From IMG/VR virus record IMGVR_UViG_3300025387_000009: a stretch of DNA of 64,000 nucleotides; one strand, 5' to 3'. This document shows positions 50,724-56,390 of this stretch, in pieces. Under the pieces are notes generated by a model, which saw only the letters and a list, made by a program, of their open reading frames with translations, had not been told where the DNA came from and did not search any database. The translations under genes and the position numbers were made by a program. This DNA is from a virus (taxonomy: Duplodnaviria; Caudoviricetes). How positions within the stretch are numbered: position 1 is the stretch's first letter; each line of letters begins with the position of its first letter.

Positions 50724-50885
50724 TCTTTATATAAAAAATAAAAAAAAACCTTGACAAAGTATTTTACCCCTATGTGTCAAGATAAAAATAATCCTTGACA
50801 CTTGGCATATGGGTCTGGTGTCAAGCACAAAGATTTTTGAAATTGTTCTTGAATGTTTGGGGAAAGATTGTATGGTAGCTCAACT

Positions 50886-52865
50886 ATGAAACTACTAGAC
50901 ACACCAAATCAAATCGAACAGATCGGAAACATCACGGGCACTTCGTCCTTCAAGATGAAGTCCTCTCGTAAAGCCTTCCAGATCCTCTCTGACCTTTACT
51001 CTGACAAGCCTCTTGCCATCGTCAGAGAGCTTGGTTGCAACGCCAATGATTCTATGGTTGCCTCTGGCAAGGTAGGTCAACCTTTCCACATTCACCTTCC
51101 CAACTCTCTTGAGCCTTGGATCACCATTCAGGATTTCGGAACAGGTATCTCGCACCAGAATATCTACGACATCTACTCCACTTACTTTGAAAGCACCAAG
51201 ACCAATACCAATGAGCAGATCGGTTGCCTTGGTCTAGGTAGCAAGTCTCCCTTCTGTTATACGGACAACTTCTCTGTCACCTCCATCCATGATGGTGTCA
51301 AGAGAATCTACAATGCCTACTTCGCTCAAGATGGCAACCCGACTATTGCCCTGATGAGTCAGGAGAACACCAAGGAAGAAAATGGTGTGGCAGTCCAGAT
51401 CCCTGTCAAGGAGAAAGATTTCTGTGACTTCATCAAGGCAGTCCAGAAGGCATTTCGATTCTTCGATGTCAAGCCAACTACCTCTGGTGGGGTGTGCCAT
51501 TGGTCAGAGGAGAAGCCTACCTTCTCTGGTGAGGATTGGATGTTCATGGATTCCTCTAATCAATGGGAGGCATTTGCCATCATGGGAGGAGTCACCTATC
51601 CTATCGACCACTACAAGGTTGCCGACAAGTATAACAACATCGTTCGCAAAGGTGTGGTTCTGAAGTTCGCTATGGGAGAACTCGACTTTGCTCCCTCTCG
51701 TGAACACCTGTCCTATGATGATGCCACTATCAAGGCAATCAATGACAAGCTGGAAAAAGTCTTGACAGAGATCAAGACCAAGGCAAAAGAGCAGATAGAA
51801 AATAAGGATAACATCCTTGACTCCATCCATGCTTTGCTCTCCTACACCGAGAGGTTCTCCTACTACGGGTCAAGCAATTTTGAACTCAAGAATGTCCAGT
51901 TCAAAGGTAAGGACATCACCGAGCCTTACAAGGTTGTCAAGGATATTCTCAAGACATCTGTGCAGTCCTTCACTCGCTACTCTTACAGGAAGCAGGTCAG
52001 CACCAGTTCATCCTTCTCCTTCGACAAGAAGTTCACATGGTATTACGATGATGGATGCAAGAATCCTATCGCTCGTGTCAAGACTCTTGTTCGTGAGACT
52101 AATGACACTTATGCCATCCTCTTCACTCAAGAGCAGAGGGATGACATGATGGATGCAGGATTCCCTGATAACTTCCTCCCTGCCTCCTCCCTGCCTTCCC
52201 CTACTGCCAAGAGGAAGCTCTCTGGTGGCACTATCGTAGTCAAGGCTAAAGAGGACATCACCTGCTATCAGATTGGTCACCCCTACAATGTCTCTTGGGA
52301 GTCAAGGACAATCGAACCGACTGAAACAAATCTTCCCAAGTATTATATCCTGAAGGGGAAGAATTGGGAGTTGAATGTCAAGCTCAATCATCTTCGCATC
52401 ATCAGCGACAAGGATCGCCTTCGCTCCTATTGTCAAGCCTTTAATATCTCGCTCAATGATATTGTGCTTGCCAATGACAAGGAGGCAAAGAAGCTCAAGG
52501 CAAGGGGTGTCAAGGATTTTGTTGAGGAGTTCAACAAGAATCACGACCTATCTTGGGTTGACATGAGTGAAGTGGACATCCTCCAATCCTACTCGACTCA
52601 CAGGTTGCATGACATCGTGAATCGTCAAGAGTTTTCTGATCTCGCCAACGACAATCCTATCAAGGAGATGCTTGTCAAGCTCCAAAGTTTCAAGCAGAAG
52701 TATAGCAAGATCACCGAAATCCTTGGCTACATGGATAACAGGGACAGCAATAAAGTTTTCAAGATGGAAGATAAAGTTCTTGACTTCCTCCTCTCCTCTC
52801 TGCTAGGAGAGTGGGGTGAGGATCAGAAGATGTATCTGCTCCTTGCAAAGAAACTGGAAAAATAG
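50886..52865 (+). CDS. rIIA: rIIA-like protein with an N-terminal GHKL/HATPase domain
   Basis: LYSDKPLAIVRELGCNANDS, IQDFGTGI and GCLGLGSKSPFCY motifs, immediately upstream of rIIB. Start moved to the ATG at 50886. Confidence 0.9.
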   Translation: MKLLDTPNQIEQIGNITGTSSFKMKSSRKAFQILSDLYSDKPLAIVRELGCNANDSMVASGKVGQPFHIHLPNSLEPWITIQDFGTGISHQNIYDIYSTYFESTKTNTNEQIGCLGLGSKSPFCYTDNFSVTSIHDGVKRIYNAYFAQDGNPTIALMSQENTKEENGVAVQIPVKEKDFCDFIKAVQKAFRFFDVKPTTSGGVCHWSEEKPTFSGEDWMFMDSSNQWEAFAIMGGVTYPIDHYKVADKYNNIVRKGVVLKFAMGELDFAPSREHLSYDDATIKAINDKLEKVLTEIKTKAKEQIENKDNILDSIHALLSYTERFSYYGSSNFELKNVQFKGKDITEPYKVVKDILKTSVQSFTRYSYRKQVSTSSSFSFDKKFTWYYDDGCKNPIARVKTLVRETNDTYAILFTQEQRDDMMDAGFPDNFLPASSLPSPTAKRKLSGGTIVVKAKEDITCYQIGHPYNVSWESRTIEPTETNLPKYYILKGKNWELNVKLNHLRIISDKDRLRSYCQAFNISLNDIVLANDKEAKKLKARGVKDFVEEFNKNHDLSWVDMSEVDILQSYSTHRLHDIVNRQEFSDLANDNPIKEMLVKLQSFKQKYSKITEILGYMDNRDSNKVFKMEDKVLDFLLSSLLGEWGEDQKMYLLLAKKLEK

Positions 52866-52867
52866 TA

Positions 52868-52896
52868 TTGACAACACAACCCAAACAAAGTAGTAT
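52868..52896 (+). promoter_or_regulatory. sigma70-like promoter for rIIB
   Basis: TTGACA (52868)-17-TAGTAT (52891). The ATG lies 7 nt downstream. Confidence 0.75.
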
Positions 52897-52903
52897 CGTA
52901 ATC

Positions 52904-53998
52904 ATGAACAACACCAACAATGCAGTCACCATTACAGGACAGGGAAAGATCACTGCCTGTATCAACGGATCAATCTACACGATTGACAACACGCACCCCA
53001 ACTACTTCAAGGCACTTGAGGCAGTCAAGGCACAGGATTGGAACGCCTTCCTCGACCATGTAGACATTTCTCGTAAGGTCAAGGATTTTGTTCTCAACTC
53101 TGATGTCCAGATTGTAGATGGCATCATCGTCTACAAGGGTGAGCCTATCCACAATACTCTCACCAAGAGGGTGATTAGTTTCATGCAACAGGACTTGCCC
53201 TTCAAGCCTCTGCTGAACTTCCTCTATAACCTGATGGAGAATCCCTCCTATCGTGCAGTCAATGAACTCTACGATTTTCTGGATGTGGGTGAACTCCCAA
53301 TCACAGAGGATGGTCACTTCCTCGCCTTCAAGAATGTTCGTGCAGACTATAAGGACATTCATAGTGGGACATTTGACAACTCCATTGGCAAGGTGTGTGA
53401 GATGCCTCGCTACAAGGTGGACGAGGACAAGGATCGCACTTGCTCAAGTGGATTGCACTTCTGCTCGATTAACTATCTGCCTCACTTTGCAGATCACAAC
53501 GGAGGTCACACCATGATTGTCAAGATCAATCCCAAGGATGTGGTGTCAATCCCTGCTGACTACAACAACACCAAGGGTCGTTGCTGTAAGTATGAAGTGA
53601 TCGGTGAATACACCGAGGATTGGAGGATCAAGCTCAATCGTGGAGAGAATGGATTCGACAACGATCTCTACTCTTCTGATGGAGGAGATTACGAGGACGA
53701 GGATGAGAACGAGTATTGTGCCAACTGCCAAACCATCCTTGATAATTGGGATGAGAACTCCGAGATGCTCTGTAACTCCTGCTACGATGACAAATACTCT
53801 GGATGCTACGGAGGAGGATGTGCTGGCAAGACTACACTCACCAACGAGGATCAGGTAGGCAACGATGGCAACGATGGTTGCTGTGGTGGTCAATGCGGTT
53901 GTGAGAACAACAACCAGTATGGTGTCAAGCCTAATGGTCATCTCTTCCACAATGTCAGAGATGCCCTTGGTAAGTTTGTCAAGAAGAATGTAGGCTAG
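52904..53998 (+). CDS. rIIB: rIIB-like protein with an acidic, Cys-rich C-terminal extension
   Basis: NPSYRAVNELYDFL, LPITEDGHFLAFK, CSSGLH and KINPKDVVSIPADYNNTKGRCCKYEV motifs. Confidence 0.9.
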   Translation: MNNTNNAVTITGQGKITACINGSIYTIDNTHPNYFKALEAVKAQDWNAFLDHVDISRKVKDFVLNSDVQIVDGIIVYKGEPIHNTLTKRVISFMQQDLPFKPLLNFLYNLMENPSYRAVNELYDFLDVGELPITEDGHFLAFKNVRADYKDIHSGTFDNSIGKVCEMPRYKVDEDKDRTCSSGLHFCSINYLPHFADHNGGHTMIVKINPKDVVSIPADYNNTKGRCCKYEVIGEYTEDWRIKLNRGENGFDNDLYSSDGGDYEDEDENEYCANCQTILDNWDENSEMLCNSCYDDKYSGCYGGGCAGKTTLTNEDQVGNDGNDGCCGGQCGCENNNQYGVKPNGHLFHNVRDALGKFVKKNVG

Positions 53999-54371: not shown

Positions 54372-54562
54372 TGGACTACTACAATCTACATCTTCCCAAG
54401 GGTAATCACTGGAACGACGAGTATGATACTTGGATTGAATCTTCTTATAACAAGGGTCATGCCATTGACAAGTTCCATGACGATGACAGGTATGGCATCA
54501 CTGCCAATAACCTTGATGACATTCCTATCGTAATCGGAGGGGAGGATATTTATATAGATTAA
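54371..54562 (+). CDS. Acidic hypothetical protein
   Basis: TAATG coupling to the upstream gene. Confidence 0.6.
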   Translation: MDYYNLHLPKGNHWNDEYDTWIESSYNKGHAIDKFHDDDRYGITANNLDDIPIVIGGEDIYID

Positions 54563-54574
54563 GATTTTAAATAA

Positions 54575-54649
54575 GGACTCGAAGCTCAATGGTCGAGCGG
54601 CATGCTCATAACGTGAAGGAAGTAGGTTCGATCCCTACCGGGTCCACCA
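54575..54649 (+). tRNA. tRNA with CAT anticodon (elongator Met or Ile2), encoded CCA
   Basis: Acceptor GGACTCG/CGGGTCC, D stem GCTC/GAGC, anticodon loop CTCATAA, T arm GTAGG-TTCGATC-CCTAC. The G1-C72 pair argues against an initiator tRNA. Confidence 0.9.
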
Positions 54650-54658
54650 AATATCTAC

Positions 54659-54733
54659 GCATCGTTCATTCAACGGATAGGATCGGGAACTTCTAATTCC
54701 TCAATGCAGGTTCGATTCCTGCACGATGCACCA
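54659..54733 (+). tRNA. trnR: tRNA-Arg(TCT), encoded CCA
   Basis: Acceptor GCATCGT/ACGATGC, anticodon arm GGGAA-CTTCTAA-TTCCT, T arm GCAGG-TTCGATT-CCTGC. Confidence 0.92.
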
Positions 54734-54738
54734 ATTTT

Positions 54739-54812
54739 GGGAGTGAAGCATTAAAGTGATGCAATAAACTTTTAATTTATTGAAGAGGGAGCGTTACCCT
54801 CCACTCCTACCA
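54739..54812 (+). tRNA. trnK: tRNA-Lys(TTT), atypical, encoded CCA
   Basis: Acceptor GGGAGTG/CACTCCT, D stem GCAT/ATGC, anticodon arm ATAAA-CTTTTAA-TTTAT, T arm GAGGG-AGCGTTA-CCCTC with a non-canonical loop. Confidence 0.75.
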
Positions 54813-55047
54813 GTTTCAAATTACCATGATCGAACTCCCAATGATGATTAGGACAAAGCAAAACAAGATTATCAATATGATTGATTGTATTAAGTCTTAC
54901 ATTATCTTCAAAATCAGCAATCGGGATTTTATGAGCAACTTCTACATGAGCATCATAACCACAAACTGCACAGACTTTAGGAGCATCTTTCATAACCACA
55001 CAACGAGAGTGCCATCTTATGTAAGCGTATGCTGTTTCACTTTTCAA
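54772..55047 (-). pseudogene. HNH endonuclease, probably an N-terminally truncated relic
   Basis: CAVCG...HVEVAH...NLVLLCPNHHWEFD. There is only a TTG start, with an in-frame TAA 9 codons upstream. The 3' end overlaps tRNA-Lys on the opposite strand. Confidence 0.7.
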
Positions 55048-55057
55048 AAACTTCGCC

Positions 55058-55094
55058 TTGGGCGAAATCCTTTAAAAGATATTCTTTTACCCAA
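55058..55094 (+). promoter_or_regulatory. 37-bp element copy
   Basis: TTGGG-cgaaatcctttaaaagatattctttta-CCCAA. Confidence 0.8.
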
Positions 55095-55117
55095 ATAAAA
55101 AAAGTTGAAAATAGTTC

Positions 55118-55145
55118 TTGCATCTTTCTGGGGATAGTGTATAGT
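55118..55145 (+). promoter_or_regulatory. sigma70-like promoter driving the candidate ncRNA
   Basis: TTGCAT (55118)-16-TATAGT (55140) with an extended TG. Confidence 0.65.
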
Positions 55146-55151
55146 CATTCC

Positions 55152-55375
55152 ATAGTTGAAATGCTACTGGTGAACGGACTAGCTATCCGTAGTCGCCACA
55201 GGTCTCAAGTCCTGATCGTGTTGGTAACCCCAGCACAAATGCAGAGAGCAACTACAGAAAAACAAGCAGTGCTGTGCAGACTTATGGGGGCGGTTGCAAC
55301 CCACGCCATAAGATGCCGAGTCGGAGGTATTGAAAAATATCACGGCGAAGTCCTTGACGAAGGATCAGCACCTAG
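55152..55375 (+). ncRNA. Candidate ~220-nt multi-stem structured RNA
   Basis: At least six stems, one with a GAAA tetraloop, downstream of a promoter and with no credible ORF. Confidence 0.6.
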
Positions 55376-55398
55376 TTTTTAATACCAACCACACCACC

Positions 55399-55812
55399 AT
55401 GAACCACCAGAAAGTCACACCAGCAGAGAACATCGGCTTCAAAGACAACAACAACTGCACCATTGTTGCCCTTTCAACTGCGGCGGGTATTCCTTATACC
55501 GAAGCATACAAGATCGGAGAGCAGTCTGGACGCAAGCATGGCAAGGGATTCTATACTGCCAAGTTGATGGAGACTGCTAGGAAAAACGGGATAGAGTATC
55601 GCAAGATCAAGACAGGCGGAATTACTGTACAGAAATTCTTGCAGAAGTATCCTACTGGTCGTTATGTTGTCAATCGTAGAGATCATGCCTTCGCCATCAT
55701 TGATGGTACAATCTACGATCACCTTCAAAACAAACCCATGCAGAGGATCATCGGAATCTGGAATGTTCAATCAAAAAGACTTGACACAATCAAATCCCTC
55801 TGCAACTCTTAA
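55399..55812 (+). CDS. Conserved phage protein with a putative Cys-His-Asp (papain/C39-like) triad
   Basis: NNCTIVAL...DHAFAIIDG..YD. Start moved to the ATG at 55399. Confidence 0.55.
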   Translation: MNHQKVTPAENIGFKDNNNCTIVALSTAAGIPYTEAYKIGEQSGRKHGKGFYTAKLMETARKNGIEYRKIKTGGITVQKFLQKYPTGRYVVNRRDHAFAIIDGTIYDHLQNKPMQRIIGIWNVQSKRLDTIKSLCNS

Positions 55813-55817
55813 TCCCT

Positions 55818-56390
55818 ATGATCACACCTACCACCATCACCAATTACAATCGCACCGAAGAAGAACTGGAAGAGTTCTTGATGTTCGCAATCCTTGTCGC
55901 AGGAAAGGGAGCAGAGCAACAGGCAAAGAAACTGGATGCTTTTCTCACTCTTTGCTTGCACAAGCATCGCAACAAACCATTTGCCCACATCAAGCATCTT
56001 GCGAGTATGGGTTGGCTTGAGATTCACATGAAGCAGTTCAAGCTAGGTCAATACAATCGTGTTGGCAATGCCTTCAAGGAGATCCTCAAGTTCAAGGGTA
56101 AACTCAAGAAGGTGACTATCGAAGAACTGGAGAGTGTCAAGGGAATTGGTAGCAAGACTGCTAGGTTCTTTGTCCTGCACTCTCGACCAGATGCCAAGGT
56201 TGCAGTCCTTGACACTCATATCTTAAAGTGGATGAGTGAGAAGGGATACAAGGTTCCCAAGGCAACTCCCCCCAAAAAGAAATATGCAGATATTGAGAAA
56301 TTGTTCTTGACAGAGGCAATCAATCATCAGATGACCCCAGCAGATTTGGACTTGACTATCTGGAAGTCCTATGCTACAAAGGCAAAATGA
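55818..56390 (+). CDS. HhH-GPD superfamily DNA glycosylase (OGG/AGOG-like)
   Basis: HhH motif LESVKGIGSKTARFF followed by VAVLDTHILKWM with the catalytic Asp. Confidence 0.8.
   Translation: MITPTTITNYNRTEEELEEFLMFAILVAGKGAEQQAKKLDAFLTLCLHKHRNKPFAHIKHLASMGWLEIHMKQFKLGQYNRVGNAFKEILKFKGKLKKVTIEELESVKGIGSKTARFFVLHSRPDAKVAVLDTHILKWMSEKGYKVPKATPPKKKYADIEKLFLTEAINHQMTPADLDLTIWKSYATKAK

Follow-up and report, generated by a model that had tools for sequence, protein, structure and literature searches.

Introduction

The twister self-cleaving ribozyme was reportedly described by Roth et al. 2014, and Perreault et al. 2011 are said to have reported phage and prophage operons punctuated by ribozymes, with hammerhead and twister ribozymes lying between genes. 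Here, we analyse a locus at positions 55118-55380 of a 64,000-nt stretch of DNA (hereafter the window) taken from the IMG/VR virus record IMGVR_UViG_3300025387_000009, in which a predicted twister stands directly before a second structured RNA. The window is part of a 121.6-kb record with a CheckV completeness estimate of 54%, and its source is an uncultured T4-like phage. The twister class itself is known; what is new is a member of it with compensated pseudoknots that is fused to an undescribed conserved junction RNA.

The structures of twisters have been reviewed (PMC5408937 and PMC6154101), and the type considered here, twister-P1, is Rfam family RF03160 of clan CL00120. Though the chemistry of twisters is well understood, their biological role is still open, and ribozymes more generally have been regarded as punctuation between transcription or processing units, their biological purpose being unproven (PMC6765202). 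[quoted passage not shown] T4-type phages further carry PeSLs, composite terminator/early-promoter cassettes (PMC2839356, PMC4122927). Phage T4 also has the small RNAs rnaC and rnaD (species 1 and 2), which are stable, of unknown function, and have a tRNA-like T-arm end, with no annotated ribozyme in the T4 record.

The locus resembles the type-P1 twister in the order of its parts, P1-P2-(P3)-P4-(P5), in the A-A that follows the predicted cut, in the pseudoknots T1 and T2, in the optional P3 and P5, in the L4 frame G-U-NNNA-A-NN-C, in the active-site G of the L1 3' strand, and in its class occurring alongside further small ribozymes in the DNA of bacteria and phages. Unlike a typical twister, it differs at four nucleotides listed as ">97% conserved", and does so pairwise (U-A in T1, A-U in T2), has an A at the position before the cut (N-1), and carries both P3 and P5, the latter having been reported in 1% of twisters (PMC6154101). 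It also lies at the extreme 5' end of a predicted primary transcript, before a fixed partner RNA. Like theta ribozymes, it would cut at its own 5' edge within a phage region of tRNAs and noncoding RNAs (ncRNAs); unlike them, it belongs to the twister class, occurs in T4-like phages from environmental metagenomes rather than in gut Caudoviricetes, and precedes a junction RNA instead of directly following a tRNA. As in the ribozyme-punctuated operons, a self-cleaving ribozyme separates units, but what is separated is an ncRNA that brings its own promoter and U-run rather than a protein cistron. With PeSLs, the locus shares the character of a small autonomous cassette in a plastic early region, with a position that varies relative to conserved genes and a stem plus U-run that often abuts the next early promoter; a PeSL, however, is a simple stem-loop with a promoter, whereas this cassette comprises a ribozyme and a multibranched conserved RNA. 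Like T4 rnaC and rnaD, it is a small non-tRNA RNA located beside tRNA genes and a homing endonuclease gene; kinship with these was considered and set aside, there being no visible likeness in sequence or structure. A twister in a simple, repeated setting before one junction RNA makes a concrete role testable, namely the supply of a triphosphate-free 5' end and of an RNA module cut free of its surroundings.

A predicted twister ribozyme with compensated pseudoknots

By its sequence, the 5' half of the RNA is a type-P1 twister self-cleaving ribozyme with the following predicted parts:

55153-55254 (+): twister, type P1, with optional P3 and P5 (Rfam RF03160, minimum free energy [MFE] fold, covariation)
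55153-55158 / 55249-55254 (+): P1, UAGUUG / CAACUA, six Watson-Crick pairs
55159/55160 (+): predicted cut, falling between A55159 (N-1) and the conserved A55160, from alignment to the Rfam consensus UAA
55162-55164 / 55241-55243 (+): P2, UGC / GCA (Rfam alignment, MFE fold)
55166-55167 (+): L2 dinucleotide AC, forming pseudoknot T2 with G55209-U55210 of L4 (A-U and C-G pairs)
55168-55198 (+): P3, optional two-part hairpin, GGUGA/UCGCC and ACGGA/UCCGU
55199-55202 / 55211-55214 (+): P4, CAGG / CCUG, including G55202-C55211
55203-55210 (+): L4, U-CUCA-A-GU
55204-55207 (+): L4 CUCA, forming pseudoknot T1 with A55245-G55248 (C-G, U-A, C-G, plus A-A)
55218-55236 (+): P5, optional hairpin, GUGUUGG/CCAGCAC
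55244-55248 (+): 3' strand of L1, GAGAG (consensus GAGGG), with G55244 as the conserved active-site guanine

An unconstrained MFE fold yields P1, P2, P3, P4, and P5 unaided. Searched with E-value reporting, Rfam returned a sole meaningful match, to twister-P1 at 55155-55252 (+), which spans the full model (positions 1-68) and scores 30.2 bits, below the gathering score of 67.2; its E-value is 4e-4 when 1.4 kb are searched with 4227 families and 8.3e-6 over the whole 121.6-kb record. The conserved A-A after the cut site (A55160, A55161) and the conserved L4 frame (G55202-C55211, U55203, A55208) are both present, and self-cleavage is predicted between A55159 and A55160.

In described twisters, four nucleotides of L4 join L1 in T1 through three Watson-Crick pairs with an additional A-A pair, the conserved GC of L2 pairs in T2 with two bulged nucleotides of L4, also GC, and a conserved guanine 3' of P2 has an active-site role as a candidate general base (PMC5408937). 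The window has CUCA with AGAG in T1, against the canonical CCCA with AGGG, the middle C-G pair becoming U-A; in T2, it has AC with GU against the consensus GC with GC, the G-to-A change being matched by a C-to-U change. The A after the cut and one G are conserved in twisters, whereas the U before the cut has been described as "less conserved" or "nonconserved" (PMC5408937). With the exception of the database score, the element displays all class-defining sequence features of a twister, and it is the single one held by the window record.

Conservation and surroundings among relatives

Pattern scans for the twister core, which left P1 and P4 free to vary, located it at 25 loci in IMG/VR, 78 in metagenome contigs, and 2 in bacterial metagenome-assembled genomes (MAGs), with 53 distinct cores among them (contigs are cited below by L numbers). 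The P1 helices average 6.6 bp with their own partners versus 3.4 bp with swapped partners, and 8 of the 8 model pairs of P1 are changed on both sides across relatives; P4 shows 12 pair combinations, with 100% of cells paired. P2 is invariant, in part because the search patterns fixed it. The optional helices vary, P3 being absent, short, or long, and P5 being present in some relatives and missing in others, including the nearest, L157. Of 48 distinct relatives, 42 have U and 6 have A at N-1.

A model built from compact relatives (R1) gave 27 matches, aligned as 18 distinct rows, in which 91% of cells are paired versus 69% in shuffles and 35-53% in slid controls; double changes occur in 11 of 15 pairs, and none of 500 shuffles reaches the observed covariation score. 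R1 misplaces the twister of the window (55186-55258, 24.7 bits) because of its long P3, and this twister was placed by the Rfam alignment and by an anchored alignment. Across 65 twister-like sequences, the middle pair of T1 is U-A in 61 and C-G in 4, with no other combination. The same contigs carry other twisters:

L162:778-853 (+): further twister
L162:1166-1229 (-): further twister
L130:6620-6698 (-): further twister
L206:1228-1296 (-): further twister

In L162, the T2 variant of the window occurs along with a canonical T1; T2 contains a G-U pair in L130, and L206 is fully canonical; in every such incidental twister, the T1/T2 combinations are compatible. In contigs of gut Lachnospiraceae MAGs (L208:1917-4425 and L209:1053-2135), the twister core is arrayed with pistol ribozymes that pass the Rfam cut-off (61-67 bits).

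What lies upstream of the twister differs between relatives. In L020, L025, and L026 it is a leader hairpin of about 55 nt; the majority ("Set A") have a conserved RNA, about 205 nt long, that follows tRNA-Met, and others carry different modules. The twister always marks a boundary, since it is preceded by a promoter, a leader hairpin, the Set A RNA, or another module. The Set A RNA itself (L003:240-500 [-], L009:9343-9570 [+], and most Set A loci) is about 205-230 nt long and is located between the tRNA-Met gene and the twister; its last bases, ..ACCA, stand 10-15 nt upstream of the predicted cut, and Rfam matches nothing in it at E<=1. In L002, L016, L018, L163, and L164, a conserved module of another kind comes after the twister, consisting of AGACUCGU, a hairpin, GUGAG..ACGU, and a terminator with a UAGUCA loop; it is a second kind of twister-linked RNA.

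A conserved four-way-junction RNA

The 3' half (domain B) is a conserved four-way-junction RNA that is absent from Rfam and for which we found no published description. Its parts are as follows:

55255-55268 (+): A-rich linker between the twister and domain B
55269-55371 (+): domain B, MFE -39 kcal/mol, z -3.47
55269-55274 / 55366-55371 (+): closing stem, GUGCUG / CAGCAC
55276-55316 (+): hairpin 1 (hp1), apex GGU-UGCA-ACC; junction strand J1 is U55275
55320-55346 (+): hp2, GAAA loop; J2 is CGA 55317-55319
55351-55364 (+): hp3, GACG loop; J3 is GAA(G) 55347-55350 and J4 is U55365

Domain B homologues (20 distinct sequences) were found 3' of the 53 twister cores, at a distance set by a linker that ranges from 5 to about 99 nt and in some relatives includes additional hairpins; they were reached via the twister, not via domain B. 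They share a common plan: a 5-bp closing stem, U, hp1, CGA, an optional hp2, (N)AG, a 5-bp hp3 with its GACG loop, G or U, the closing stem, and a tail resembling ACAAUUUU, with about a dozen junction and loop nucleotides conserved around variable stems. The optional hp2 is missing in L140. In a MAFFT alignment, 8 of 10 pairs of the closing stem and hp3 are changed on both sides, including a U-A to A-U change in the closing stem; only these two helices were formally counted, as MAFFT does not register hp1 and hp2. Slid controls of this alignment pair in 42-55% of cells.

The coupling between the two halves is strict. In 784 kb of related DNA, a covariance model of domain B hits every locus exactly once and never in the absence of a twister; among the hits is the divergent L142, which had been left out of model building. 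Each of five phage records of 82-138 kb holds one copy. In two scans of IMG/VR with patterns for domain B only, every copy, apart from chance hits, lies behind a twister. When domain B was compared with Rfam 15 in a 141-nt search at the laxest filters, nothing was matched at E<=10 but minus-strand noise (E 1-6), and in L031 Rfam sees only the tRNA downstream of domain B.

Two further ideas about domain B were set aside. Kissing-loop dimerisation through the "palindromic" loop of hp1 (UUGCAA; AUGCAU in L143; GGUUGCAACC in the window) is not relied on, as about half of the cores would contain a 6-nt palindrome by chance alone and the pattern is more simply a UGCA tetraloop closed by U-A or A-U, which fits the change from U..A to A..U in L143. 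A hammerhead reading fails, the junction strands (1, 7, and 1 nt; CGAAUAG) not fitting CUGANGA / GAA / H.

Fold energy and coding potential

The original prediction, made for 55152-55375, was of a structured ncRNA with group-I-like features at its 3' end. All of the stems it listed are present and every one is recovered by the unconstrained MFE fold:

55169-55197 (+): GGUGA-ACGGA/UCCGU-AG-UCGCC
55199-55214 (+): CAGG/CCUG
55218-55236 (+): GUGUUGG/CCAGCAC
55281-55312 (+): CUUAUGG/CCAUAAG
55326-55341 (+): GGUAUU-GAAA-AAUAUC
55351-55364 (+): UCCUU-GACG-AAGGA
55269 and 55366 (+): GUGCUG with CAGCAC

On the plus strand, 55152-55375 folds with an MFE of -74.1 kcal/mol, compared with -59.4 +/- 4.4 in dinucleotide shuffles (z -3.34, 0/200), whereas the minus strand gives z -1.11. 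Folded separately, the two halves reach z -3.09 (55153-55254) and z -3.47 (55269-55371) on the plus strand, against -1.36 (5' half) and -1.68 (3' half) on the minus strand. The fold is thus more stable than chance on the plus strand only, and covariation is seen both in the twister relatives and in the homologues of the junction domain. Conservation among homologues and the fold z-scores bear out a structured, conserved phage ncRNA on the plus strand behind a predicted promoter, and a ribozyme appears to be present as had been suggested, albeit of the twister type instead of a reduced group I type.

Two pairings proposed alongside these stems did not hold. A switch between GUGCUG and the CAGCAC at 55231 can be drawn in the window but is not kept: the nearest relative, L157, retains the GUGCUG/CAGCAC closing stem yet has no P5. 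The P7-like pairing of GACUU with AAGUC is equally drawable here and has no counterpart in relatives without a long hp1. The stretch had also been called free of open reading frames (ORFs); a 117-codon frame (55029-55382, +) does cross it and was judged to be noncoding, being without a PHROG match and closed in the nearest relatives L157 and L181. A 54-codon frame on the minus strand was likewise rejected as a gene, with no PHROG match and no open counterpart in relatives.

Predicted promoter and 3' end

Candidate signals lie at both ends of the putative transcript:

55118-55145 (+): predicted early-type promoter, -35 TTGCAT at 55118-55123, 16-nt spacer, -10 TATAGT at 55140-55145, read from the sequence
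55376-55380 (+): U-run (U5), 4 nt (CUAG) after the closing stem

Transcription is predicted to start at about 55152-55153, the first base of P1. The promoter is identical at 22 of 31 positions to a promoter-like sequence (50846-50876) that precedes rIIA in the same genome. Five relatives (L181, L157, L153, L151, and L140) have a near-identical or equivalent promoter at the same distance from the twister, together with (A)UAGUUG in P1 and A at N-1, whereas their P3, P5, and downstream parts differ. In the window, L181, L157, L153, and L140, 12-15 nt separate the end of the -10 box, as called by a regular expression, from the conserved A; the promoter of L151 was read by eye. As to the promoter-like rIIA counterpart (50846-50888 of the window), it falls within the opening codons of the longest rIIA frame; since the similarity to the PHROG family sets in only at residue 12 of that frame, the ATG at 50886, 9 nt after the -10 box, is probably the true start of rIIA. 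Directly upstream of the promoter of the RNA, a 37-bp element with inverted 5-bp ends (TTGGG...CCCAA) occupies 55058-55094; L157 has a similar ...TTTACCCAAA end at the equivalent position.

At the other end, the closing stem (6 bp, 4 of 6 G-C) is followed by CUAG and U5, and an A-run (55256-55260) lies on the other side of this stem. Stem and U-run probably constitute an intrinsic terminator, possibly a leaky one. A tail of the ACAAUUUU type follows domain B in nearly all relatives.

Proposed mechanism and alternative explanations

We favour, with a probability of roughly 0.6, the reading that 55118-55380 of this T4-like phage forms an autonomous early RNA gene, composed of a promoter, a twister, the junction RNA, and a U-run. 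It builds on the fold, conservation, covariation, twister core features, and strict twister-to-junction coupling observed above. Transcription from a sigma-70-type early promoter would start at about 55152, and the first 100 nt would fold as a type-P1 twister that cuts between A55159 and A55160, removing a 7-8-nt leader with the 5' triphosphate and leaving a product about 220 nt long that begins with a 5'-hydroxyl (5'-OH). This RNA would consist of the compact twister fold, the A-rich linker, and the conserved four-way-junction domain, and the closing stem and U-run would end most transcripts, presumably at 55376-55380. The 5'-OH may have a stabilising effect. The general job of the twister would be to furnish the junction RNA with a defined, phosphate-free, structured 5' end and to uncouple it from upstream RNA, because in relatives the twister may follow a promoter, a leader hairpin, or a different RNA, be it an ncRNA or a tRNA; RNase P sites do likewise for the neighbouring tRNAs. 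Comparable roles have been put forward for ribozymes that separate phage cistrons (PMC6765202) and for theta ribozymes adjoining phage tRNAs (PMC10879173).

Several points weigh against this account. Where the transcript starts, is cut, and ends is in each case predicted from the nucleotide sequence. The promoter of the original prediction, which is supported by its likeness to that of rIIA and by the relatives, is not called by a simple sigma-70 consensus scan, its -35 box matching at 3 of 6 positions. No terminator is called by a simple scan that admits loops of 3-8 nt only, and no promoter-like site separates the U-run from the ATG at 55399. The type-P1 twister stays on the downstream RNA after cleavage, an arrangement better suited to the 3' end of an upstream RNA, and N-1 in the window is A rather than the usual U. 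The 100% pairing of the domain B homologues arises partly by construction, as their collection demanded pairing. Finally, the twister scores below the Rfam cut-off. This last point is weak evidence against membership, given that the cut-off is stringent: compact relatives score 32-37 bits, the Lachnospiraceae twisters beside pistol 45-46, and two in L165 55-56, so that even the pistol-adjacent and L165 twisters stay below 67.2. The low score of the window is accounted for by one compensated pair per pseudoknot and by the large insertions of P3 and P5. At the Rfam cut-off for twister-P1, an entire population of phage twisters whose pseudoknots are compensated thus goes unseen.

The main rival, which we hold to be rather unlikely, descends from the earlier suggestion of a riboregulator of the downstream operon. 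The latter is weakened by the different downstream genes of the relatives and survives as a processed 5' leader, or "ribozyme insulator", of the operon formed by the next gene, of PHROG family phrog_3754 (p3754), and the following Ogg-like glycosylase gene (Ogg). The twister would trim the variable 5' end, the twister fold and junction domain would protect the 5' end of the mRNA, and the U-run would act as a weak or regulated attenuator. The missing promoter between the U-run (55376-80) and ATG 55399 speaks for it, the same being true of L153 and perhaps of L181, as does the co-directionality of all downstream genes. In L031 (2608-2685, -) and L142, moreover, a tRNA-Trp(CCA) starts 4-6 nt after the U-run, so that transcription must cross the U-run, which is therefore not a full stop in these contigs. 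With no separating promoter in the window, L153, and the tRNA-Trp cases, the stop must therefore be leaky, with some read-through at these loci.

Nevertheless, the downstream gene varies from phage to phage. The relatives share rIIA, rIIB, p3754, Ogg, and the HNH gene, while the position of the RNA among them changes: it precedes rIIA in L025 and L026, p3754 in the window and L181, Ogg in L157, tRNA-Trp in L031 and L142, and a small ORF elsewhere, and in L024 it directly follows Ogg. In about half of the relatives, the U-run abuts the -35 region of a fresh early promoter. These varied downstream genes and new promoters favour the autonomous cassette. The tail ACAAUUUU with its upstream A-run, moreover, resembles a terminator, and no conserved pairing with the translation start is found, both of which also tell against a leader.

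A bolder proposal about the junction domain, which we consider doubtful, is that it represents a new functional RNA class working only with the twister, either as a second self-cleaving or ligase-recruiting RNA or as a binding module that needs a phosphate-free 5' end. If true, this would give twisters a defined biological role in T4-like phages.

It is improbable, in our estimate, that the junction domain is itself catalytic or ligand-binding. As a second self-cleaving ribozyme, it would, together with the twister, excise an RNA whose ends, a 5'-OH and a 2',3'-cyclic phosphate, would serve for its ligation or circularisation; as an aptamer, it would have a closing stem that doubles as a terminator. 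Every copy found is coupled to a self-cleaving ribozyme, and association with self-cleaving ribozymes led to pistol, hatchet, and twister-sister (PMC6765202); a junction RNA with a fixed ribozyme partner is the kind of clue that lay behind these earlier new classes. The conserved junction and loop nucleotides around variable stems, the dispensable hp2 (L140), and the lack of an Rfam match point the same way. On the other hand, the domain has no similarity to known ribozyme or riboswitch models, its junction strands are unlike the hammerhead core, and a metabolite riboswitch would sit poorly with such varied downstream genes. A search of the record for genes of RNA repair (RtcB, Rnl1, and Rnl2) turned up none; as the record is 54% complete and the Rnl1 control was missed too, this weighs little.

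Still less credible is the idea that the junction domain is a stripped-down tRNA-like cloverleaf serving as a cutting signal for host RNase P or Z in an array of tRNAs and ncRNAs. Suggestive points are its cloverleaf topology, in which an "acceptor" and a "T" stem of 5 bp each might stack, and its location in tRNA-rich regions, sometimes directly before a tRNA. ARAGORN and the Rfam tRNA models, however, are blank at 55269-55371, though they find three true tRNAs at 54575-54809; the 4-nt GACG loop is not a T-loop, there are neither D/T elbow elements nor a CCA-like tail, the "anticodon arm" hp2 is optional and variable, and the loops are UGCA, GAAA, and GACG tetraloops.

A reduced group I-type ribozyme or intron, for which only the drawn P7-like GACUU/AAGUC pairing with its following hairpin and G can be cited, can, as far as sequence evidence goes, practically be dismissed: Rfam Intron_gpI (RF00028) has no match at E<=10 over 54500-55900, while the same library detects the positive controls L002 (85.5 bits) and L005 (77.7 bits); all stems are accounted for by the P3-P5 of the twister and the junction domain; and no gene or tRNA is interrupted, the RNA being flanked by a promoter on one side and by the beginning of an intact ORF on the other and the neighbouring tRNAs being complete. 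The Rfam comparison called for in the original prediction hence came out in favour of its ribozyme, through the twister-P1 match in the 5' half, and against its group I type.

Genomic setting

The autonomous RNA gene that we favour lies between a tRNA cluster and two further genes, given here as context:

50853-53998: rIIA and rIIB
54575-54809 (+): three complete tRNA genes, Met, Arg, and Lys(UUU) (ARAGORN or Rfam tRNA models)
54772-55047 (-): HNH endonuclease gene, 91 amino acids
55399-55812 (+): p3754, 137 amino acids, function unknown, the next gene after the RNA
55818-56390 (+): Ogg-like glycosylase, following p3754

The tRNA-Lys(UUU) gene (54739-54809) has an odd T-loop and D-loop, scores 44 bits with Rfam, and was missed by ARAGORN; the terminal part of the HNH gene (54772-55047, - strand) lies antisense to its 3' half. 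This small HNH gene is probably a mobile homing-type gene. The window copy (54775-55047, -) is 67% identical to HNH genes near the twister cassettes of L031 (220-471) and L039 (6657-6908), where orientation and position differ from those in the window. The GenBank phage collection contains no match either to the RNA or to the 10 kb around it. In related phage contigs, the same tRNA-rich region contains group I introns adjoining tRNA-Met (L002:5756-5988 [-] and L005:3301-3525 [-], 78-86 bits), and a related tRNA-rich region in L006 (9154-9600, +) carries a phage-encoded transfer-messenger RNA (111 bits).

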